In this document: one piece after another, positions 25,763 through 51,226 of the stretch
Numbering within the stretch: position 1 is the stretch's first letter
Layout: the number at the start of each line of letters is the position of its first letter
IMG/VR virus record: IMGVR_UViG_3300021599_001487
Strand: one strand, 5' to 3'
Length of the DNA stretch: 64,000 bases
From: an uncultured virus (IMG/VR IMGVR_UViG_3300021599_001487)
Taxonomy: Duplodnaviria; Heunggongvirae; Uroviricota; Caudoviricetes
Notes under the pieces: generated by a model
Told to the model about the DNA's origin: nothing
Databases searched by the model: none
The model's input: only the letters and a program-made list of their open reading frames with translations
Made by a program: the position numbers and the translations under genes

Positions 25763-27546
25763 TCACTTCTGGTAGCGCCTCCCGAACCATCCCTCTGCGG
25801 CGAGAGGAAAATCCGGAGCCCAGTTAGGTGGTGTGGTCATGGCCGTGACCACACGATCTAACGAGGACTCACCCTGATCCTCGGGAACCAACAGGAGCAA
25901 CTCATCGTGAATGCTGTTGACCACTTCAAATCCGTCCTGATCAAGCCTAAGCATGGCCTCGGTAAGAAAATCACGCGCAGTACCCTGGACCACGCTCTGA
26001 AATATACTCGGACCAATAAGCTTGTTCCTGCCCCACTTCCGGGTGAAGGTGCTCTGGTTTCGGACGGTCAGGCCGTCCCTGATCTCTCCCCAGGGAGTCA
26101 GCTGCTCCTCCACTTTGGGGTCCTGCCAGCAGATGAACCTGCCGCTGGGGAGCTTGAGGAAGAGAGCGCCTTTAGAAAAATTAAACAGGACTTTGCCTGA
26201 CTTCACCGAGGTGCACGGTACCCTCACGGCCTCAATCGCGGCCTGCTCGTACTCGTACCAGCTCTCCTTAACGCGCAGGTACTCCTGTCGGTAGGCCCTG
26301 ACGGCGGCCTCTGCCTGTATCACGCTCAGTGTTACCCCCATCCCCTCGGCGTACTCCACCAGCCCCTTTGAGCCCTGGCCGAACATGGCGCCCAGGACGG
26401 CAGACTTTGCCACCTGCCGCATGTCCTTCGTGACCTCCTCGTACGGGACGTTGTAAAGGCTCTTTGAGGCGAATATCTTGTACTCGTCCAGCCCATCGCG
26501 GAACATCTCGACCTTGTCCTTTTGGCCCGANNNNNNNNNNNNNNNNNNNNNNNNNNNNNNNNNNNNNNNNNNNNNNNNNNNNNNNNNNNNNNNNNNNNNN
26601 NNNNNNNNNNNNNNNNNNNNNNNNNNNNNNNNNNNCGCCCGGTCGATGCGCCGTGGTAGACCAGCGTGTTGCGTATCCTGCCACCGACCTGGACCTCCAG
26701 CATCTTCTCGTACTTGGCGACGCTGGTCAGCGACCCCTGCCGGCGCAGCTCCAGCACGCGCCGTATCTTGTCCGGTATGTCCTTGCGCGCCAGTAGCTTG
26801 TTGACGGTCTCGGCCGTTAGGTCATCCACAACGATATTAGCGGAGCGCAGCCACTCCCCTATCTTGGCCGGCTGGTTGGCGGTTAACCCTCCCGTCAGTA
26901 GGGTTATTTCCGAGCGTATATTGGCCTTGTTGATCTCGACCGCGGCTATGGCATGGTTGAGCTCCGACGGGTCGACCGGCACCCCTCTGTCGTTGATCCT
27001 CTGCGTCAGCTCCCACACCCTCTGCTCCTGCGATGTCATGCGTCGCAGGTCCTTCACCACGGCCATCTCGGTCCGGACGTCCTGCTTGCAGTACTCGTAC
27101 ATCTGAGACAGCAGGTGCGGGTCCCGGTTGAAGGTCTTGCCGTCACGTCCTGGCTTGGACAGTCTCTGTATCAGCCGCTTGCCGGTGGCGTCTTTCTGCT
27201 GCGAGACGTCCAGGAATATCGCGGCGTCCTCCAGGCCCTGCGGTATGTTGGCCGCGGCGGCCATGGCCATGGAGTCGATAAACTGCTCCAAAAACACTGG
27301 CAGCTTGAGCACGTGCCGCATGATGTTGTACTCAAACGCGGCGTTCCAGGCCTGGAACTTGGTCGTCTCGTCCGACATAAAGTCCGGCATTGGCTGTTCT
27401 GCTGGCAGCCAAATAATGGGGTCAGACCCTCTGATTGAGTACGCCATGCAGATCACTTCCGTGCTTGGGTCCCGGGCGTAGCGGTCAAGGCCGTGGGTTG
27501 GGAGGTCTACAAGGCTGCGGGTCTCAAAGTCGATGCTTACGATCAT
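25763..27546 (-). CDS. polA: DNA polymerase family A (spans an N gap)
   Basis: DFETRS and WNAAFE exonuclease motifs, YHGASTG, motif B RQVAKSAVLGAMFG and motif C IHDE. Confidence 0.9.
26531..26635. other. Assembly gap (run of N)
   Basis: 105 N inside the polymerase gene. Confidence 1.
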
Positions 27547-27680
27547 GCGTGCTCCTGTGGCGGGCCGACGTATCGGCGGTTGAATTTGTAACAATTTTAA
27601 TGTTACATGACAAAAAACGTGTTAATAACGTAAACGTGTCCAAAAAACGTGTACACATTTCGGACATTTGTAAACATATC

Positions 27681-33013: not shown

Positions 33014-33094
33014 TGGTGGAGTTGCTGGGAATCGCACCCAGGTCCGCGAGGTTGCCGCTTAGGCCTTGGCCCACGTCGAAGCTATTCCAACCCC
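33014..33094 (-). ncRNA. ssrA: Minimal tmRNA (tRNA-like domain only)
   Basis: 5' GGGGUUGGAAUAGCUUCGAC and 3' GGACCUGGGUGCGAUUCCCAGCAACUCCACCA. Acceptor stem with G3:U70, discriminator A, encoded CCA; no tag ORF. Confidence 0.8.
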
Positions 33095-40778: not shown

Positions 40779-40857
40779 GATTCCTCTCTGTCTGCCGTAC
40801 TAATACAAAATTCCAGGGTCAATAACTTACACCGCAAAGTTAAAGTAAAGTCTTAGA

Positions 40858-40980
40858 TGCCGCAGGTAGCGCAGGTAGCGCGGGTCTATTCCATGTTAGT
40901 TGTACTTTTTTCATTTTCAAAAATCAAAAATAAATCAATTAACTGTGTTTAGACCTGCGCTACCCGCGCTACCCGCGGCA
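40858..40980. repeat. Inverted triplets of 9-bp iterons around an AT-rich spacer (candidate origin)
   Basis: TGCCGCAGGTAGCGCAGGTAGCGCGGGTC ... GACCTGCGCTACCCGCGCTACCCGCGGCA. Confidence 0.75.
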
Positions 40981-41046
40981 TTTGTCCGGACAAGTTACCG
41001 ATTGATCTGTCCCTTGTCCGTACAGGCTCACTGCATTGATATGTAC

Positions 41047-41636
41047 TCATCCGCCAGCCTGGCCGCGCGGAGGTAGATCTCGGTCGCTGCCAGTCCATGC
41101 TCGTGCTTCTCGAACAGCTTTTGCGCGGCGTCGGCGGCAGAAATTGCCTTCATAAACTCCAGTATCAGCTCTTGTCTTGTCTGCATAATTGACTCCTTGG
41201 TCAGTTAGTTGATGGGGGCGCAGCCCTTGCGCTTGAGTGAGACGATGGCCCACTGCCGAAACTCGTCCCGGCTGGATTGGTCCTGCTCCTCGTGTGGGTC
41301 CCACAGCACGTCCAGGACGTGCCGGCCGGTCTCTGCCTCTTCGGCGACGATCTTTACCATCTTGCCCTTGTCGTCGAATACCTCGGTCAGGCGGACCGGG
41401 CGCCAGTGTTGGTCATTCATAGACGCCCCCGCGTGCCGTGATGGCGTTGGCGGCGTACATGACCCCGTTCTTGGTGTCCCAGTTCTCGGACTTGGATAGC
41501 GCGCCCATAACGGCCGAGTGGCACTCCCTGCGCTCCAGGGTCGCGACCAAGGTGGCAAACGCGACCAGTGTCTCGGGGTCGGTGTCGCCTGGCATGCTGG
41601 CCCTCTCGGCCAGGTAGAGTATTTCCTTCCTGTTCA
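41047..41636 (-). other. Cluster of three small hypothetical genes
   Basis: MNRKEILY (from 41636), MNDQHW (from 41420) and MQTRQEL (from 41187), each with an RBS or overlap. Confidence 0.5.
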
Positions 41637-41674
41637 TTGAGTATTTCTCCTCACTTGGTTGAGTAAATTGTTTC

Positions 41675-42274
41675 TCACTCCTCGCTCTCCTCCTGAAACT
41701 TCTCCTGGTTGAACGACTCGAGCGATGTCGGCTCCCTGGCGATAAACCCACGCAGGTCCGCCAGTCGGGTGACGTGCACCTGCAGGCGGTCGGCGAGCTC
41801 TGCGTCGGTGGGGTCCCGGCCCATCTGCTGCGTCATGACCCGCTCGGTGTACTTCATGCGCCTGATCTCCTCGGCGATGTTGACCGGGACGCGGATCATG
41901 GACCACTCGTTGTCCAGGGCCCTGCGCACTCCCCTGACAATGAACGGCCTGGCGTAGGTCGCGAAGCGGGCCCCGTTCCTGGGGACCCACTTCCTGGCGG
42001 CCTTGAGCAGCGCCTCGTTGCCGATGGCCAGCAGGTCCTCGAACGGGACGTTGCCGTGGTGCCACTCCGGGGTCTCCTTGACGACGGAGACCACGAACCG
42101 CAGGTTGTGCCTTACCAGCTTCTCCAGGGCCCTGCCGTCGCCGGCCTGGACCATGCCGGCCAGCCTCTCCTCCTCCTCGAGCGGGAGGGGCTGCGATGAG
42201 TGCAGCCCGGACAGGTAGCCCGATATGCTGGACCTAGCCCCGCTCAAGTTTATACCCCGCCCACAAGATGCCAA
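41675..42274 (-). CDS. Sigma-70 family factor, regions 1.2-3 only
   Basis: YL.......L..EEE..LA, LV.HNLRFVVSV, GNE.L.KAA.K, RFATYA..., IRVP, R.PT..ELA and SL; stops before region 4. The real start may be the TTG at 42247. Confidence 0.85.
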   Translation of the reverse strand: MASCGRGINLSGARSSISGYLSGLHSSQPLPLEEEERLAGMVQAGDGRALEKLVRHNLRFVVSVVKETPEWHHGNVPFEDLLAIGNEALLKAARKWVPRNGARFATYARPFIVRGVRRALDNEWSMIRVPVNIAEEIRRMKYTERVMTQQMGRDPTDAELADRLQVHVTRLADLRGFIAREPTSLESFNQEKFQEESEE

Positions 42275-44000
42275 GACCGACCAGCATCATCAAATAGTTT
42301 TCCCAGTGCTCGCCGGTCGCCTGCAGCATTAGCCCGAAAATGAGCACCATGAGGCCGATGGCTTTCATAGCGACTCCATTCTCTTGGCGTACTCGACGCC
42401 GTTGATCCGGGCCACGTACTCAAAAGATCCGAGCGTGCCGGGCTTGACCTCGGTGCGTGCCGGTATGCGGTTGCCCCAGTAGTCGCGCGTGTGCTGCGTC
42501 CCGAGCAAACAGAAACCGTCGGTGAGTGCGTCCATCATGGTGCGGCCGTAGTGGCCCTGCAGCTGCCACGCGGTGAGGCTGTTGATGGCGCGCTGTAGCG
42601 CCTCATAGTGCTGTTGCTGGTCGTCGGCAAAGTTTTCGATTGCCTCGATGTCTGAGATGTTTAGCATGTCAATGTCCTTTCTGTTATGAGCCGAGGGCTA
42701 GGTGAATGATGCGCACCGGTAAATGGTTGGGGTGCACGCCCATGTCGTCCTTGCCCGAGTCGTAGTATCCCTCGAAAAAGTCGTGGTGTAAATCCCCCGT
42801 CGTTTGCTGCTGTTTTTTGGCGATGGCAAACAGCTGGCGCCATGTCGGGTTCAGTAACACCTTGGATCGGTATGGACGGCTCTGCTGGCCGCCGAAGAAT
42901 TCGCTGCGCTCTGACCTTACTTGGCACAGGCCCGTGAATGCGACGATGTTCTGCCGCATCCACCAGCACCCGATCTGTGGGTCGAAGACGCCGCGCTCGA
43001 AGTCGTGTGTGGAGACTGAGTACCTCATGGTGTTGCTCCTGTCGTGGTTGGTTAGATTATTTCGTATGAGCCGCGCACTGCCTTGGCCCATCGCCTGCCG
43101 TAGTCCTTGGCCTCCTGCTCGTACTGTGCCCCGCCGTACATCACCGCGGGCCACCATTTCTCGCCAAAGTCCTCGTGCTCTGCGTTGTCGTCGCCGTAGA
43201 CTACCCAGCTCCCGCCGTCGTAGGTTACGGTGATGATGGGCTCGGGCGGCTCCTCGATCTGCCACAGCTCGCTCTCGTCGTCGACGATGGTGAACGTGAT
43301 GGGTCCGATTGTTTTCTTGGTGATCATGTTGCGCTCCTGTTTAGTGTAGGTCCCACGGTCTCATGATGATCACGGCGGCCGCGAGTGCTGATAAGAGTAG
43401 TAGTTCGCCTAGCATGGTGTTGCTCCTGTTTGGTTGTTGGTGGGGGCGGGTGGGCAGTGGATCCCAATCAGCTCCGGCCGGGGTTTCAGTGCAGGGTTTG
43501 CTGCCTGCGCCGCTGTCCGGACCGTCATAGGCCACACTTTCCCGCCCCCGTTGGTCATGCCTCGATGCCCTGCTCACGTGCCGCGGCCATCACGATATTG
43601 CGCATGATGGGCTCGACGACTGGCATGATCCGGTCGAAGTCGATGTCGCGGTACCGGCCGCGCAGGCCGTAGCTGTACTTGTAGAAGTCGCTCACGCGGA
43701 CCTTGAACAGCCGCCTAAACTCAGGCCCGCGGTTGCATAGGCCGTTGTTGTATAGGTCGTAGTAGCAGTTCGAGGCTCGGCGGAAGCGCTCGAGTGCCTT
43801 GTTCTTGCGCGGCTGCTCCACCGGGCCCATGTCCGGCACCATCAGCACCAGCTGGTCCGCGATGTCCTGAAGGTCGCTGTCGTTGTTCCAAAATGATTGC
43901 ATGGTCATTCTCCTGTTGTGGTTATGGTGTTGGTGGGGCCATTCTCGCACGCGAGGCCCCTGGCGCGTAATGGTCCCGGGCTAGCCTCCCGGGAAGCGAA

Positions 44001-44267
44001 TTAGACGCCCTTGACCTCGAGTATTGTCTCGCGGTTCACGGCGCGGTAGGCGCCCTTTGAGACGTCGAAGACGGTGACGTAGCGCTCGTTGTCGAGCGTT
44101 GACTCGCCGCCCTTCAAGTGCTTCGTGACTTTCATGCGGCAGTTCATCTTGCGTATGGTGCCGTCCTTCTTGAGGAAGGTCACGGTGGCGAACCCTTTGG
44201 CCTGCTCAAGTTTTTTGGCCAGCGCGCGTGACTGGACGGGGTCGATCTTGATTCCGAAGTTTTGCAT
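44001..44267 (-). CDS. Small SH3/WYL-like beta-barrel protein
   Basis: F.TVTF.KKDG..R.M and V.VFD.....YR......I. Confidence 0.6.
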   Translation of the reverse strand: MQNFGIKIDPVQSRALAKKLEQAKGFATVTFLKKDGTIRKMNCRMKVTKHLKGGESTLDNERYVTVFDVSKGAYRAVNRETILEVKGV

Positions 44268-45833
44268 GGTAGTGCTCCTTGGTTGTGGTTGGTATCTTAC
44301 TGGTCTTTCGTGGGTACTTTCAAATGAATTTGTCGTCGTCCAGCCCCAGCCGGCGCAGGATCTCGTAGAGGTTTATCTTGGCCTTGATCTTGATGCCCAT
44401 CATCTGAACCTTGGGCTGTTGTTGTGTCGTTGTCATGGTGTTGCTCCTGTTATCGTCCAAAAAGTTTGGCCATTGTGCGCTCGAGAGTGGGAAGGCGCAA
44501 GCTGTCAGACTCTCGCCGGGCCTCTGCCACCTTGCGCTTGGCCCACTGGAACCCATGCCTGAGGGCCTCGTCGTACGACTCGTGGCTGTAGTAGCGCACG
44601 CTGCCGTTGCCGTAGCCCCTGCTCTTGGCCGTGACCTTGCCGTCGGCCCATAGCGTGATGTGGTAGTACATGCCCGTTGGCAGGCCATCGGCCCGCACGC
44701 GTGCCCTCATGCCGCCCATCGGCAGGACTGTCTCGATGAATTCAATCATGTTGCTGCTCCTATTTAAAATCCCAGCCGGAGGCCTCTAGTTCAATGGCCG
44801 AGGCCCTCGCGGCGCGGTTTAACTCGGACTGTGTCTGCCAGCCGAGGGTTGAGTGAAAGTAGATCTGTCGCATGTACTGCTCCACCATGCGGATCTTGTC
44901 GATGTCTGTGAGGCCGGTGGCCTTGGCGATGAGTCGCTGGTAGAGGTTCATGGCTGGGTCTCCTCTAGGATCTCGCGGCGCAGTGCCTCGAGGTCGTACT
45001 CGCCGTTCAGGACCTCGGCCAGCATGGCCATGGTCGAGTAGCTGGTGGCGTTGTGCTCGCCAAGGTACTGGCTGAGCATGCTGACGGTGATGGGTGTGGT
45101 GGGTGTGCTCATGGTGTGCTCCTGTCTTGGTTAGTCGGTGCTGCGGCCGGCGGCATAGTCGGCCTCGTACTGCTCGCTGCTGTACCAGCCCGAGATGATG
45201 GTGGGCTGGGGGCTGGTCGTGCCCTCGGCGGGCCGTGTCGATGCCAGCCGGGCGCGTCGCGCGTCGTACTCGGCCCTGATGGCCTCCTGCTGCTCGAAGT
45301 ACTCCTCGAAGATTTGGTCGATGGTCTTGGTCATGGTGGTTTCCCTTACTGTTCGATGGTCGTGATTTGGTACATCTCGTGGCCGATGGTGACGACGTTG
45401 GTGCCCTGCTGCAGCATCCAGTCGATCCAGTCCCTGTCGTCCTTGTCCCAGGCCTTGCTGTCGATGGGTGCGCTCTTAAACTGGCCCCAGCCCTCGGGGC
45501 CCTTGTAGTGGTAGGTAACGATTTGCATGGTCTGCTCCTGTGGTTGGTATCTTACTGGTTTTTCGTGGGTACTTTGAACAGGGCAAATACGTGGCTCCCT
45601 GCCAGACCCCCTGCAGTGTCAGTCCGGCCTCGAGGTAGGCCTTGTAGTAGTTTCCGAAGTAGGCCCCGCGCTTGAACCTGCGGCCGTGTTTGGAGAGCAG
45701 GGCGTGTGCCTCGGCGTAGGCCATGCCGGTGGCGTTGGCTAGCGCGCGTACGGTGCAGTCGTTGCGCTCGCGCTCGGACGATTGGCCGCTGCATGCGGGC
45801 AGGATGTAGTGAATCATGGTGTGCTCCTGTTGT

Positions 45834-45878
45834 GAAAGTGTACTGGCCGGGGAATTGAACCCCGGCCGCTGCACTCTC
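45834..45878 (-). ncRNA. Conserved intergenic hairpin, copy 1
   Basis: GAGAGUG-CAGC-GGCCGGGG-UUCAAUU-CCCCGGCC-AGUA-CACUUUC. Confidence 0.6.
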
Positions 45879-46274
45879 ATGCCTCCCGGCGGGATAGCAT
45901 AATGTCGCGAATGCTTTCGCGATCGACTGAGTCGCCGCACCACTCCAGGCTTGCGTCGGGGCGGGACGTCAGCTTGATGGCGATTGCCTCGAGTATTTCC
46001 TGTCTTGTGGCGCTCAAGTCGTACAGGCCCCCGGGCCCGTAGAACTCCAGCACGTAATCTACAAATTGCAGTGTGTCCGGCATGGTGTTGCTCCTGTTGT
46101 GGTTGGTGTCTTACTGGTTTTTCGTGGGTACTTTTACCTGCCAAACGAAAAACGTGCCACAAAAAACTAGGCGCGCGTACTCGATCGCCTCTCGTTTGGT
46201 CCTAAACTTTGGGCCTGTCGTTGTCTTGGTGTTGGTCCCTGCCAGCCAGTATGCCATGGTGATTCTCCTGTTGT

Positions 46275-46318
46275 GAAAGTGTACTGGACAGCCCCGTAGG
46301 GCTGGCCGCTGCACTCTC
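46275..46318 (-). ncRNA. Conserved intergenic hairpin, copy 2
   Basis: Same base stem and CAGC/AGUA internal loop as copy 1, with a different apical stem closed by UACG. Confidence 0.6.
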
Positions 46319-46320
46319 GA

Positions 46321-46927
46321 TTACGCCACGAGTTTGATCGGGATCACGCGATCGACGACGAAGCCCGAGACGTCGCGCTTGGCCTTGCCCTTGGCGTAGA
46401 GGGCCACGACGACTCCCTGCGGGTGTGCCACGGTCACGGAATACCACGGCCACGCGCATGCCGGCGCTGATGGCGCGCTTCGCGTACTCCGGGAAGGCAC
46501 CGACGCCGGACCACGAGAACGTCAGGTCATAATTGGCCGGGATGTCGCGGCGGTTGGCGATCTTGGTGTAGTCGTAGAACTGCACGCCGGGGAAGCGATC
46601 AAAAATGGTGCGCCCGTCGTCTGTCTTGATCGTCTCCCAGCGGATGTCTGTCGTGCCGTTCAGGCGCACGAGCGGGGTCATGCCCTTGCGTTTGGCGCTG
46701 CGGACCAGCCGCTCGATGTCGGCCACGAGCACGCGCATGAACGCGGCGCGCTGCTCGATAAAAAACCGGGCCTTGGACAGTCGTGCGCGCTGGACGTTGG
46801 ACATGGCGCCACGGCCGGCGCTGTTCAGGCAGGCCGCCTTGCACCCGGCCATGTCGGCCATGGGGCAGAGGTTGACGCCGGAGAGGTCCGCCGGGGCCAT
46901 GTACAGAATGCCTGTCATGAACCCGTA
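46321..46927 (-). pseudogene. Gp88-like gene, frameshifted
   Basis: TGILY.AP, CP.A..AGC..ACLN.AGRG, RLNGTTD and FYDYTK. The C-terminal VVVALYAKGKAKRD.SGFVV is in another frame. Confidence 0.65.
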
Positions 46928-46950
46928 TGGTGTGCTCCTGTTGTGGTTAT

Positions 46951-47002
46951 GCATCAGACCATCTCGCGATGGTTTCGGCCAATCAGGCCTCGTCAGTGAT
47001 GC
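46951..47002 (-). ncRNA. Type I hammerhead ribozyme
   Basis: GCAUCA CUGACGA GGCC-UGAUU-GGCC GAAA CCAUC-GCGA-GAUGG UC UGAUGC: complete core and GUC cleavage triplet. Confidence 0.93.
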
Positions 47003-47206
47003 TCAGTCGTTCCAAAATTCTACCGTGGGCTCGCCGCGCAGCACGCCCAGCACTGATATGCCGTCGCTGTCGTCCCAGCCCCAGTCCTCGGCGCACTGCT
47101 CTTTGCCCTTCTCTGCCGCCTCGTATGGGTCTGCTGCCTGTACGTGATCAATCCATGTGGTGCCAAAGCTGCCGGCCTCTCTGCAGAATACTGTGTACGT
47201 TGCCAT
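47003..47206 (-). CDS. Small acidic hypothetical protein flanked by hammerheads
   Basis: MATYTVFCREAG..GTTWI..V.A...; RBS CAGGAG; 67 aa. Confidence 0.7.
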   Translation of the reverse strand: MATYTVFCREAGSFGTTWIDHVQAADPYEAAEKGKEQCAEDWGWDDSDGISVLGVLRGEPTVEFWND

Positions 47207-47229
47207 GGTGTTGCTCCTGTTGTGGTTAT

Positions 47230-47281
47230 GCATCAGACCCGCCGCAGCGGGTTTCGGCCAATCAGGCCTCGTCAGTGATGC
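47230..47281 (-). ncRNA. Type I hammerhead ribozyme
   Basis: GCAUCA CUGACGA GGCC-UGAUU-GGCC GAAA CCCGC-UGCG-GCGGG UC UGAUGC. Confidence 0.93.
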
Positions 47282-47962
47282 TGGCGCTGTTATACGCAGT
47301 AGCCCTCGCCGCGCAAAAATTTCGCAAGGGTTTCCGGTTCGATGTCCACCTCGTCGCAGAGGATGTCGAGGGGACAGCCTTTGTCCCATAGCTCGATGAT
47401 TCGTGCCTGAATGATGCTGGTCATTCTACTTCAGAGACGCCCACGCCGTTGGCGCGAAGCCATGCCAAACACGGCGCCGGCACTTCGTACATGCCCTCAT
47501 AGTCGAAGGCCTGTTTGGTGGCCGGGTCCACGTCCACCCGGACGGCGCGCTCGTCGCCGAATTGCTCGTGCTCGAAGTAGTAGCCCTCGCCGTCGTCGCA
47601 CTGGTAGACGGTGTACTTTCCTGCCATTCCAAGACTGTCTCTGCTCATGTCGTGCTCCTGTTGGTTGTGGTTGGTGTTTCCATCTTACTGGTTTTTCGTG
47701 GGTACTTTTGGGGCGCGGGCCGCTCTCTGATGGCCGATCAATGCGCTACCCCAGCGCCGAGGCCTCGCACGCGCGTTTTTAGCCCCGCTGGCGGGCTGGC
47801 GCGCTGCCGGGTACCCCTGCCCTTGGCTGGCTGTGGATATCCCCGTGGTGGCCGTTTTCCTGCATGGTGAAATGCTGGCGCCCGCCCCGCCACTTTGGCA
47901 CGATACTTGCTAGGGCAAGATGCGTGCCTGCGCAACATGGCACGATTCTTGCATGCCGGCAT

Positions 47963-48167
47963 GTTAGTGAGCGCACACTGACATATTGCGCGGCACCAAA
48001 TAGGTTAGTGTGCGCACACTGGGGGTGCTGCGGTGCGGCATATAGGTTAGTGAGCGCTCGCTGGGGCTGGTGCGTTGCGACATTGCTGCGCTGCACAATG
48101 TTAGTGGGCGCTTACTAACATGGTGCGGTGCAACATCGGCAGGGCGGGCTTTTGCTGCGGTGCGTCA
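47963..48167. promoter_or_regulatory. Array of palindromic operator-like repeats
   Basis: GTTAGTGRGCGCNYACT-like sites at 47963, 48004, 48046 and 48100, interleaved with TGNTGCGNTGCRNCA repeats. Confidence 0.65.
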
Positions 48168-48284
48168 CCCCTTTAGGGTCCTGTCCGGACAGGCCGGGGC
48201 GGGGCCCACACAAATCGCTAGCCCGGCAATTTTTGCCGTATTTTTTGCTGTACGTGTAGAAGTATAGAGAAATGCATGAAACCT

Positions 48285-48584
48285 AAATGAGAATCGTTCT
48301 CATTTGCCGCGGGTAGCGCAGGTTGCCGCAGGTACGAGCAAGGATCTTTTTCTCTATACCGAAATTTTGCGTCAGAGCTAAGTCATTGATTTTATTAGGG
48401 CCCAAATGAGAATTATTCTCATTTGCCGCAGGTAGCGCAGGTAGCGCAGGTCTATGTAGACTTGATTAGCTTTTTTAAAAAATAAAAAATAAAATATCTG
48501 TATGGACCTGGAATTGACCCGCGCTACCCGCGCTACCTGCGGCATTTGACACTCTGCCTTAAGAAACAGCGCTAAGTCATTGAT
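48285..48584. promoter_or_regulatory. Control region with Fur-box-like palindromes, IHF-like sites and iterons
   Basis: AAATGAGAATNRTTCTCATTT at 48285 and 48404; TAAGTCATTGATT at about 48379 and 48573; iterons at 48305-48544. Confidence 0.6.
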
Positions 48585-48634
48585 TGTTCGTGGAGGGGCC
48601 TTATTTTTGTGGAAGGTGCATAAGTGGTATAGAG

Positions 48635-48859
48635 ATGAAACGAAAAAACCCAGACACCGGCGACGTGTTCCACCGGGGCGATACGCGCCTGGATGGGTAC
48701 GTGTTCTTCGCCTACACCAAGAGGCGGAGATCGGACGGACACTTCGTCGAGATATGGCTGCACCCCCTGGCATCGGAGAGGGCCACCGTAAACGACCGGC
48801 AAAGAAAGCGGCAAAAGGCACATGGCGATACCGTCAGACACGCCACTACCGACGCCTAG
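48635..48859 (+). CDS. Hypothetical protein
   Basis: MKRKNPDTG..F.RGD.R.DGY.F..Y; follows the promoter motif at 48617. Confidence 0.6.
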   Translation: MKRKNPDTGDVFHRGDTRLDGYVFFAYTKRRRSDGHFVEIWLHPLASERATVNDRQRKRQKAHGDTVRHATTDA

Positions 48860-49796
48860 CGGGTGGGTGCTGGCCTCAGACCTTCGACCTGGAGACGTCC
48901 TGTTCAACCCCCGCGGCGGTACCCAGGCCGTTGGCTCTGTCCAGAGCTACATACCAACCGAGTGCTACCGGGTGCACATGTCGGACGGTACCAGCATCGT
49001 CGGCGACCGACACGCGGGCATGATGCTGCAGGACCAGCGGTGGCGCGAGAGGCAGCAGTCCTGGTTCAACAACCAGGGCAACAAGTTTGCACAGAAAAGA
49101 TTTCGCCGCCCGCTAAAGAGGCAGACCTTCCTGGATCTTTACAAGGGACCGCTTTTGGACGCGAGGGGCCGCAAGAACTGGTCCCTGCAGGCCGTGAGCC
49201 CCCTGCAGTACCCGCAGGTCGACCTGCCGGTGCCTCCATACGTCGTGGGCCTGTGGCTGGCGACGGTCACCCCAACCAACCGCCACTGGCTACTGAACCG
49301 AGACTACAACCAGATGCAGAGACGGGTGCGAGAGGTGGGGTTCAGCCTGGCAAGAAAGAAGAAGGGCAAGTGGATGTTCTCCTTTAGGCCCGGCGTAAGG
49401 GAGTCGTTTATACACTCCGGGGCCCCGGTGCCGGACGTGATACCGCAATCATACCTTGAGAGCGACGTAGACAGCCGACAGGCGCTGCTGGACGGGCTAT
49501 TTGACGCAAAAAGCATCAAAAAAGCGGAAAGCTCACGCGATGGTCTGGTGATACACGACAACTGGCGCTCAATACGGCGCAAGCAGCAGCTCCTGGAGGG
49601 CCTTGGGTACGTCACGAGGCTGCTACAGAACGGAAAGAACACCTTTTTCTCGCTCTACTTTACGAAAATGTATGACAATGTCGCTAAGTGCAGACGTTTT
49701 GTTACAAAAGTTGAAAAAATTGTCCCAAAACAGTGCGTACACATCGCCACAGACGGGGAGTTTGTCGCGGGAGAGGGATTTTTAGGTATATGCTGA
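48822..49796 (+). CDS. Free-standing intein-like (Hint + degenerate LAGLIDADG) protein
   Basis: AI..DTP.PTP.GW....DL..GD, CY.V..SDG..I, LPVPPY..GLWL, IP..YL and R..LL.GL.D; lacks the terminal His-Asn. Confidence 0.75.
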   Translation: MAIPSDTPLPTPSGWVLASDLRPGDVLFNPRGGTQAVGSVQSYIPTECYRVHMSDGTSIVGDRHAGMMLQDQRWRERQQSWFNNQGNKFAQKRFRRPLKRQTFLDLYKGPLLDARGRKNWSLQAVSPLQYPQVDLPVPPYVVGLWLATVTPTNRHWLLNRDYNQMQRRVREVGFSLARKKKGKWMFSFRPGVRESFIHSGAPVPDVIPQSYLESDVDSRQALLDGLFDAKSIKKAESSRDGLVIHDNWRSIRRKQQLLEGLGYVTRLLQNGKNTFFSLYFTKMYDNVAKCRRFVTKVEKIVPKQCVHIATDGEFVAGEGFLGIC

Positions 49797-51226
49797 CCAA
49801 AAAACAGGAAACGGTACTCGCAAACTTCGCAAAAAACAACAAGCACTGGCCAAAGGCGCAGCTAGAGGCCGCGCTGTGGCAGGTCAGGTGGGAGCTGGAG
49901 GCGTTGGCGCACCAACGAGAGCCAGAGGACGGCGAGTACGACACGTTTCTGATGCTGGCAGGGCGAGGGTCGGGCAAGACGCACACCGCGAGCCACTGGA
50001 TTGGGATACGGGCATGGAAATACGCCGGCACGAGGTGGCTCGTCACGGCACCGACGTCGAACGACATACGCGCGACGTGCTTTGAGGGTGACTCGGGCCT
50101 GATGAACATCATACCGTCTTCGCTGATACAGGACTACAACAAATCGCTCTTTGAGATCACGCTAACCAACGGCTCGATCATACAGGGCATACCCGGCTCA
50201 GAGCCAGAGCGCTACCGGGGCAAGCAGTACCACGGGGCCTGGTTCGACGAGCTGTGCGCGTTTGAGTACATCGACGACGCATACGACCAGGTACAGTTCA
50301 CGCTGCGACTGAGGCACCCAGACATCGCGCGGGTGCAGCAGATCATCACCACCACCCCAAAACCTAAAGAGCTCATCGTAGACCTCAACGATGGCAAGGT
50401 CGGCGGGGACGTGTACGTCGTAAACGCCAGCTCCTACGACAACCGACAAAACCTCTCGGCGACGTTTTTCAAGCAGCTCGAGACGTACGAGGGCACCGAC
50501 CTCGGCAAGCAGGAGATCTACGGCGAGATCCTGGACCCAGAAGATGCCGGTATCGTAAAACGGAAGTGGTTCAGGATGTGGCCCTCCAAGAAGGAGACGC
50601 CTACCCTGGAGTATGTCATCGCAAGCTACGACCCGGCCACGAGCGAGAAGACGCACAACGACCCAACGGCCTGCACGGTGTGGGGCGTCTTCGAGCAACA
50701 GGACGCGGGCACGTCGCTCATACTGCTAGACGCGTGGGACGGTCACCTGGCCTACCCAGAGCTGCGCAAAAAAGTAATCAACGACTTCAAGGAGGTGGTG
50801 TACGGGGCGGACAACACGTTTGCCAAGGGCAGGAAGGCCGACCTGATACTGATGGAGGACAAATCGGCCGGTATATCCCTGATACAAGAGCTTCAGATGG
50901 CCGGCGTCCCGGTCCGGGCCTACAACCCAGGCCGCGCGGACAAGGTACAGCGCGTCAACATCGTGGCGCCCCTGATCGCCAAGGGCAAGGTGTTTGTGCC
51001 GGAGGATGCCAAGAAGGACGGGGAGTACGCCGAGTGGACCAAGAGATTTATGCGCCAGGTCTGTGCCTTCCCGGAATCTGGCGGCCACGACGACTACGTC
51101 GACAGCCTGTCGCAGGCGCTGCGCGTACTGCGAGACTCTGGGTGGGTACAGCTAGACCCCCTGCCGCCGCGGGACTACTCCTACGCCGACGACAAAAAGA
51201 CCCGAGCCAACCCATACGCGCAGTGA
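49790..51226 (+). CDS. terL: Terminase large subunit
   Basis: AGRGSGKT Walker A, WFDE Walker B, TTTP, nuclease DPA and HDD.VD. Confidence 0.93.
   Translation: MLTKKQETVLANFAKNNKHWPKAQLEAALWQVRWELEALAHQREPEDGEYDTFLMLAGRGSGKTHTASHWIGIRAWKYAGTRWLVTAPTSNDIRATCFEGDSGLMNIIPSSLIQDYNKSLFEITLTNGSIIQGIPGSEPERYRGKQYHGAWFDELCAFEYIDDAYDQVQFTLRLRHPDIARVQQIITTTPKPKELIVDLNDGKVGGDVYVVNASSYDNRQNLSATFFKQLETYEGTDLGKQEIYGEILDPEDAGIVKRKWFRMWPSKKETPTLEYVIASYDPATSEKTHNDPTACTVWGVFEQQDAGTSLILLDAWDGHLAYPELRKKVINDFKEVVYGADNTFAKGRKADLILMEDKSAGISLIQELQMAGVPVRAYNPGRADKVQRVNIVAPLIAKGKVFVPEDAKKDGEYAEWTKRFMRQVCAFPESGGHDDYVDSLSQALRVLRDSGWVQLDPLPPRDYSYADDKKTRANPYAQ

Follow-up and report, generated by a model that had tools for sequence, protein, structure and literature searches.

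Two type I hammerhead motifs as probable punctuation between early genes of an uncultured freshwater phage

The early region of the phage genome

The window, by which we mean the whole 64-kb stretch of DNA analysed, was identified as phage by a PHROG scan of its 75 ORFs. Genes for terminase, portal, head and tail proteins are found on the plus strand from 48.8 kb, while further structural genes and the lysis genes occupy the same strand at 1-25.7 kb. A minus-strand block, running from ~48.1 kb down to 25.8 kb, opens with many small unknown ORFs and subsequently encodes a sigma factor, primase, helicase, exonuclease, gp2.5-type SSB, ribonucleotide reductase and DNA polymerase. Two hammerhead motifs, HH1 and HH2 (Table 1), are located among the first small ORFs of this block, on the same strand, beside operator-like repeats and upstream of the sigma factor, primase, helicase and polymerase genes, and a leftward "early operon" is a fair inference from this position. 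DNA of the phage is present in freshwater and lake metagenome runs from 11 studies. Megablast comparison of positions 45000-49000 against cultured phages returned no match and the primase shares at most 27% identity with its counterparts in cultured phages, suggesting that there is no close cultured relative. We regard it as an uncultured freshwater phage, virulent-looking and not a prophage.

Both the large terminase subunit and the DNA polymerase are represented by two overlapping ORFs which match different parts of the same PHROG families. These splits could reflect frameshifts, introns or inteins, or assembly indels, and together with the broken GP88-family gene described below they bring the quality of the assembly into question. 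ARAGORN detected no tRNA or tmRNA in the window. An Rfam tmRNA match of 81 nt (RF00023; 50.0 bits against a threshold of 47) covers only both ends of the model, which form its tRNA-like part, and has 19 nt where the model has 312 positions.

Table 1. Positions of the hammerhead motifs, neighbouring genes and other features of the window
Feature	Position	Strand	Remarks
HH1, type I hammerhead	47281-47230	minus	52 nt; predicted cut 47236/47235
HH2, type I hammerhead	47002-46951	minus	52 nt; predicted cut 46957/46956
75-aa ORF	47648-47421	minus	upstream of HH1; overlaps 44-aa ORF
44-aa ORF	47424-47290	minus	upstream of HH1; stop 8 nt before stem I
CAGGAG Shine-Dalgarno of 67-aa ORF	47219-47214	minus	16 nt after HH1 cut, 7 nt before ATG
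67-aa ORF	47206-47003	minus	between HH1 and HH2; orphan
CAGGAG of HH2 module	46940-46935	minus	16 nt after cut; expected start 46928-46926 reads ATA
GP88-family gene, damaged	46202-46954	minus	Pfam PF17338, 124.6 bits; PHROG 1617
Repeat D1 (44 nt, 4 copies)	44277-44320, 45532-45575, 46091-46134, 47665-47708	minus	in hammerhead-slot position
Element C, intergenic module	46275-46318, 45833-45879	minus	terminates in shared leader
Inverted repeat	40855-40983		A/T-rich centre
Inverted repeat	48416-48552		A/T-rich centre
Palindromic boxes D16 and D18	47961-48135		divergent region between early and terminase operons
Large terminase subunit	48822-51226	plus	two overlapping ORFs
DNA polymerase	25763-27594	minus	two overlapping ORFs
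tmRNA match (RF00023)	33014-33094	minus	81 nt

The ORF enclosed by the two motifs matches no Pfam or PHROG family, and three homologues were found. One of these, in the relative G003, shares 44% identity and is the first early gene of that relative, lying behind a copy of repeat D1, with a hammerhead after it and none before. In the window, HH2 begins directly after the TGA of the 67-aa ORF. The gene beyond HH2 belongs to the GP88 family and is damaged at two places. The first 23 codons of its relatives are absent, with homology starting at 46928/46929, right after the HH2 module. Furthermore, the homology changes frame at about 46425-46431 and residues 189-211 of the relatives are missing, while two DNA runs contain 65 extra letters exactly at 46424/46425. 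One RNA-library contig continues past the HH2 module into the coding sequence of a full-length GP88 form. The gene is thus either truncated and frameshifted, a pseudogene, or the product of an assembly fault at that place. As it is broken, in the genome or in the assembly, a cut at HH2 would not free an intact cistron downstream in this case.

The leader with which the hammerhead modules terminate is also found at the end of two further repeat types of the operon. Copies of the first, D1, have the leader and CAGGAG at their end and a -10-like TAAGAT inside; they are unstructured as RNA (z 0.25 and 0.42), and one copy scores as a sigma-70-like site. D1 is also present in the related contigs L028, L037 and L038, while in G003 it lies immediately between the first early gene and operator-like repeats, and in one case a hammerhead immediately precedes it. 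D1 is probably an early promoter, and its copy at 47665-47708 is a candidate promoter which would drive a transcript containing HH1 and HH2. The second type, element C, is a hairpin of which the lower stem and an internal loop (CAGC/AGUA) are conserved and the upper stem differs by compensated changes (fold z-scores: -3.69 and -6.01). A third copy is found in the related contig G005. A permissive Rfam scan of positions 40800-48900 gave no match to element C, and a loose pattern applied to viral contigs recovered the hairpin in one of 120 loci, a known relative, the others being chance matches. It could be a processing hairpin of the RNase III type.

Two long near-perfect inverted repeats (D4 and D9) composed of GCGCTACC-type units bracket the block of small early genes. 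Matches to miRNA precursors on both of them, obtained in the same permissive scan, were discarded as spurious, and the remaining hits were noise. The palindromic boxes D16 and D18 have similar counterparts upstream of the first early gene in G003 and are likely operator sites.

The hammerhead motifs and their viral subfamily

Both motifs read, in order, GCAUCA / CUGACGA / GGCC-UGAUU-GGCC / GAAA / stem III hairpin / UC / UGAUGC, and the core, read directly, is complete in each (C3-A9, G12-A14, A15.1-U16.1 and C17). They carry every core nucleotide (C3 U4 G5 A6 N7 G8 A9, G12 A13 A14, A15.1-U16.1 and H17) by which hammerheads are recognized in the Methods of Perreault et al. 2011 (PMC3088659; cited throughout from the portions of its text available), and stem I is open, which makes them type I. 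Stem I (GCAUCA/UGAUGC), stem II (GGCC/GGCC) and loop II (UGAUU) are the same in HH1 and HH2. Stem III is ACCCGC/GCGGGU with a UGCG loop in HH1 and ACCAUC/GAUGGU with a GCGA loop in HH2, so that two pairs are compensated (C-G,G-C versus A-U,U-A; CCCGC/GCGGG versus CCAUC/GAUGG) and the loops are not alike. The stems are of minimal length (I: 6 bp; II: 4 bp; III: 6 bp), and including the leader the two copies share 89% identity over 71 nt. Cleavage is predicted after C17, between GUC and U, which lies at 47236 in HH1 and 46957 in HH2; the two predicted cuts are 279 nt apart. The original prediction, made from the letters of the window, had described two minus-strand type I hammerheads with full cores, the same stems I and II and a covarying stem III, and this proved correct to the base. 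Re-reading of the coordinates likewise gave the same cuts, as predicted positions, and the same 279-nt unit with the whole 67-aa ORF inside.

A pattern combining the core with stem I matches the window twice, at HH1 and HH2, against an expectation of 0.00 from 100 shuffles. For both copies the three-way junction is the minimum-energy as well as the centroid fold (-26.0 and -22.0 kcal/mol; z-scores: -3.14 and -3.53), and none of 200 shuffles folds as well. Stems II and III are capped by loops, stem I is open, and the core-adjacent pairs A2.1-U1.1, G10.1-C11.1 and A15.1-U16.1 are intact.

Curated models recognize these motifs poorly. The scan with Rfam hammerhead models that the original prediction had proposed as a check returned no hammerhead or other ribozyme at gathering scores across the whole 64-kb window. 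Under permissive settings the only match was to RAGATH-1-hammerhead (RF03152; HH1: 19.8 bits; HH2: 18.6 bits; gathering score: 56.3), in an alignment spanning model positions 26-77 of 77, so that the 3' 52 positions match both copies. RF00163 (Hammerhead_1) did not match HH1 or HH2 at E<=10. The catalytic core, three-helix junction and open stem I are held in common with RF00163 and RF03152, while the first 25 positions of the latter are without counterpart in HH1 and HH2. Since the gathering scores are not reached, membership of the hammerhead class rests on the core, the structure and comparative evidence. A custom covariance model (R1), built from 21 motifs which by construction include HH1 and HH2, scored 81.1 bits for HH2 and 74.2 bits for HH1 with filters off; it located no third hammerhead in the window, the next best score being 10.6 bits.

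The comparative evidence comes from a wider phage subfamily. The stem II core pattern occurs at no fewer than 128 viral-contig loci and, among the loci listed, 90 of 155 core matches pass a simple test for type I stems on their flanks. Sixty distinct full motifs, HH1 and HH2 included, were recovered among the matches listed, and the 21 motifs of R1 were taken from these. R1 yielded 105 matches at E<=0.001, distributed over 100 of the 128 loci, again among the loci listed. The seed alignment (A2) came from a script in which pairing was a condition of selection, and is biased towards structure. In the large alignment (A3) of 92 distinct rows among the matches listed, which was fitted to R1 and so leans towards structure as well, 99.4% of 1419 cells are paired (shuffles: 66.1%), double-sided changes occur in 14 of 16 pairs and in all three stems, and the covariation score is 0.736 (shuffles: 0.141; slid controls: <=0.102). 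The invariant pairs among these 92 rows are G10.1-C11.1 and A15.1-U16.1. Among the matches listed, no change occurs in the 11 nucleotides of the core, whereas covariation is seen in each of the three stems, and as judged from these alignments the helices are backed by covariation among homologues.

Within the close subfamily, the sequences of which are closely related, conservation reaches 90% or above at the flanking A residues, at the distal G-C/C-G pairs of stem I and, in loop II, at the first U and the A. A search for the narrower loop-II variant across 185,579 species, each represented by one genome, gave two stretches only, both on one MAG contig, and on this basis the subfamily looks essentially viral.

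Module layout, arrays and gene starts

The hammerheads are part of a module of fixed layout, consisting of the stop codon of the upstream gene, the hammerhead, a short A/C-rich spacer, a Shine-Dalgarno motif and ATG, such that the whole intergenic gap is filled. This layout is drawn from the distances of stops, Shine-Dalgarno motifs and starts at 95 distinct sites (93 from the loci listed, together with HH1 and HH2), which were counted with a crude script. Among the matches listed, 78 of the 95 sites have a Shine-Dalgarno-like motif and an ORF start at most 90 nt from the cut; 50 of these 78 starts lie at 14-29 nt, HH1 falling at 29 nt. An upstream ORF stops between -6 and +8 nt of stem I at 64 of the 95 sites, likewise among the matches listed, the distances in the window being 8 nt for HH1 and 0 nt for HH2. 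The geometry of the HH1 cut, CAGGAG and ATG is the same in relatives. It had been predicted that a CAGGAG ribosome-binding site follows each cut, and it does so at equal distance in both modules; the start position beyond HH2, however, reads ATA and not ATG, since this module abuts the inside of a truncated gene.

Arrays of two to five copies are common among the relatives, with 3, 5, 4, 4 and 5 copies in whole related records, and neighbouring copies are spaced 257-1180 nt apart (39 pairs in 19 arrays, among the matches listed). The locus in the window is itself such an array, with two coding-strand, intergenic hammerheads flanking a single gene of a phage operon, and different genes are carried between homologous hammerheads in relatives. 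As arrays of this kind are common in the relatives, the pair around the 67-aa ORF represents two neighbours of an array and no special unit.

A 128-aa frame (47389-47003) runs through HH1 and was rejected as coding, as a Shine-Dalgarno motif and ATG are found at the distance usual for the family. Furthermore, the homologue in G003 has its start at the equivalent ATG although another kind of element precedes it, and the stems covary as RNA, not as codons. The public call for the 67-aa ORF (P0001; stretch concerned: 47206-47233) is 76 aa long and begins at an in-frame AUG inside the 3' strand of HH1 stem I. The use of this AUG as a near-leaderless start after cleavage was set aside, other stem I variants of the family being without AUG. 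As the reading frame stays open across HH1 and HH2, gene-calling programs can include a portion of the ribozyme in the coding region.

Processing of the early transcript and alternative readings

We consider it likely that HH1 and HH2 are functional type I ribozymes which serve as intercistronic punctuation in the leftward early operon, converting its message into single-gene mRNAs. From the motif, its covariation, its position and the arrays we infer cleavage, co-transcription from one promoter and an effect on stability or translation. In the proposed sequence of events, the host polymerase would transcribe the operon and each hammerhead would fold once the 3' strand of its stem I emerges, cutting itself after C17 during transcription. 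The upstream piece would be left with a 2',3'-cyclic phosphate end and would retain nearly all of the ribozyme, including stems II and III, which would cap its 3' end with structure, while the downstream piece would begin with a 5'-OH, followed by six nucleotides of stem I, the short unpaired A/C-rich spacer, CAGGAG and the start codon. In this manner the polycistronic RNA would be converted into single-gene mRNAs with defined ends, and the stability and translation of each cistron may be uncoupled from those of its neighbours. The four runs compared, two of DNA and two of RNA, consist of contigs; those from RNA cover the locus too thinly to reveal ends at the predicted cuts, and DNA may have been carried over into these libraries.

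The role has a precedent in phages. Perreault et al. (2011; PMC3088659) described hammerheads of prophages and phages which flank single genes or short gene blocks, and proposed that long phage transcripts are processed into mRNAs of operons or single genes. According to the available text, cleavage of polycistronic constructs of ~2 kb was observed in vitro; three tandem arrangements were cut in vitro and one array was also cleaved in E. coli. In a halovirus, an early polycistronic transcript contains a hammerhead 13 nt ahead of a start codon. As far as its available text goes, a 2019 review (PMC6765202) treats the processing role of phage hammerheads as suggested and still unproven, and calls for more work. 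Of the two interpretations offered in the original prediction, the self-processing of an early polycistronic mRNA is the best supported, by the perfect core, the covarying phage family, the position between a stop and a Shine-Dalgarno motif with ATG across the 95 sites, and this 2011 precedent as available (PMC3088659); the circular RNA, considered below, is not supported.

An alternative role at the level of DNA is unlikely. The modules would here act as near-identical linkers of 60-70 nt, through which recombination shuffles, gains or loses early genes as cassettes, with RNA cleavage being secondary. The 89% identity of HH1 and HH2 over 71 nt, the leader shared with two other repeat types of the operon and the different genes found between homologous hammerheads in relatives are consistent with it, and promoter or stem-loop cassettes of T4-type phages provide a precedent in the available portions of PMC2839356 and PMC4122927. 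DNA contigs of two runs (X1 and X3) are furthermore rearranged exactly at hammerhead modules: one joint places a hammerhead-like module with six differences from HH1, and 25 letters, between the 75-aa and 44-aa ORFs (stretch concerned: 47204-47412), while another skips 46929-47203. As hints only, these joints suggest that strains differ in their number of hammerhead modules and fit the use of near-identical modules as recombination points; they come from metagenome contigs, their sides are short (30 letters), and the assembler may have produced them by passing through repeats. Recombination alone, however, leaves the invariant 11-nt core and the three covarying stems unexplained, and the exchange of genes is better taken as a consequence of the repeated modules than as their function.

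Processing of the early transcript thus remains the preferred reading, and a circular message, which the original prediction had also raised, is very improbable. As the stems I of HH1 and HH2 are identical, the excised 279-nt piece could rebuild a complete hammerhead around its own ends, its 5' UGAUGC pairing with the GCAUCA of HH2. Hammerhead cleavage leaves 5'-OH and 2',3'-cyclic phosphate ends, which are substrates of RtcB. We doubt strongly that a 279-nt circle containing a Shine-Dalgarno motif, the 67-codon ORF and its stop is sealed here, whether by the reverse ribozyme reaction or by a host RtcB-type ligase that such ends would suit. The observation most in its favour is an RNA-library contig (X19; 200 nt; depth ~4) which goes back 279 nt, entering a hammerhead from the 3' portion of the ORF and continuing towards the start of the ORF, a permuted join present in neither of the two DNA runs compared. 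The joint, however, falls inside 33 letters common to HH1 and HH2, and the word length of Logan is 31. The stem III following it is that of HH1, whereas ligation at the GUC sites would carry that of HH2, and only ~9 letters beyond the generic leader link the contig to the 67-aa ORF, a near-identical leader and start being present before another gene of the window at about 44445. Both alternative paths have coverage gaps, so that a path through the repeat is the simplest reading of this contig. Apart from this join, which carries the wrong stem III, no other joint was found in the contigs of the two RNA runs (X19 and X20), which are sparse and give this absence little weight; 47258-47479 and 46929-46970 are stretches without RNA-library cover, from which nothing follows.

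The relatives also argue against a circle. The same stem I is shared by only 16 of the 39 neighbouring pairs (19 arrays, among the matches listed), one relative alternates two stems I, and the homologous ORF of G003 has a hammerhead downstream only. Furthermore, none of the 75 ORFs matches an RNA ligase family at E<=1e-5, and a pair around one gene is simply two neighbours of the ordinary array layout. In the available text of Perreault et al. 2011 (PMC3088659), circular or spliced products are deemed conceivable but none were detected, and the literature searched, as available, yielded no report of a phage hammerhead circle. If a circle were formed, this DNA phage would express one of its early proteins from a translatable circular RNA that exonucleases cannot attack, and the strain behind the X19 contig would have the same stem III in both hammerheads. 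The hammerhead pairs of viroids, satellites and retrozymes (PMC7229834 and PMC6765202, in the portions available) are alike in lying on the same strand, in their matching stem I, and in bracketing a short unit with potentially ligatable ends. They differ in that the unit here codes for a protein and belongs to an operon of a DNA phage, without a rolling-circle or retroelement context, and that matching stems are found in only part of the neighbouring pairs of relatives.

Coupling of cleavage to translation is a further and highly improbable refinement, in which a ribosome terminating on the upstream gene would shield some of the core together with the 5' side of stem I, as the abutting stop codon would entail, so that the cut follows its release. 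Cleavage would be immediate if the upstream gene were untranslated, tying the fate of the downstream mRNA to upstream translation. The stop position between -6 and +8 nt of stem I at 64 of the 95 sites (among the matches listed), including the 0 nt of HH2 and 8 nt of HH1, is compatible with such coupling, and regulated cleavage was raised as a possibility by Perreault et al. 2011 in the text available (PMC3088659). Tight spacing is, however, to be expected in any compact phage genome, which suffices to account for the geometry, and the sequence shows no element that might sense a ligand or state. That the motifs arose by chance or are decayed, inactive remnants is scarcely credible: the unreached Rfam hammerhead thresholds and the broken GP88 gene after HH2 would be accommodated, but two perfect cores, the compensated changes in stem III, a chance expectation of 0.00 and a large covarying family at the same intergenic position would not.

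With processing of the early transcript as the favoured function, no new principle is involved, as the layout, the processing idea and the idea of a circle were all published in 2011 (PMC3088659), and members of the subfamily may already be included in Dataset S1, the all-hammerhead alignment, of that paper. The arrays described there, as far as available, are alike in having several intergenic hammerheads on the coding strand which flank small genes of varying identity, but they belong to prophages, whereas the present ones are found in a virulent-looking, uncultured freshwater phage. The geometry of stop, hammerhead, spacer, Shine-Dalgarno motif and ATG was quantified in the present analysis and not taken from Perreault et al. 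2011, and no report of this hammerhead/Shine-Dalgarno geometry in phages was found in the portions of the literature searched. The 52-nt ribozyme here occupies the whole gap from the stop codon to the ribosome site, and arrays of it are found in many uncultured phages. The locus and its relatives represent a compact and well-defined test case for the role of bacterial and phage hammerheads.

In phage T7, early mRNA is cut between genes at host RNase III hairpins, which uncouples the cistrons. RiboJ is a synthetic ribozyme insulator (PMC6206723, as available). The proposed function of HH1 and HH2 resembles both, in that mRNA is cut between cistrons or before the ribosome site, with a structured 3' end on the upstream piece and a clean, context-free leader on the downstream piece. 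It differs from T7 in that the predicted cut is made by the RNA itself and leaves 5'-OH and 2',3'-cyclic phosphate ends, and from RiboJ in that the hammerheads are natural and not engineered and their effect on expression is a prediction only. If the processing role is true, the hammerheads of this phage subfamily would be natural counterparts of the ribozyme insulators of synthetic biology.
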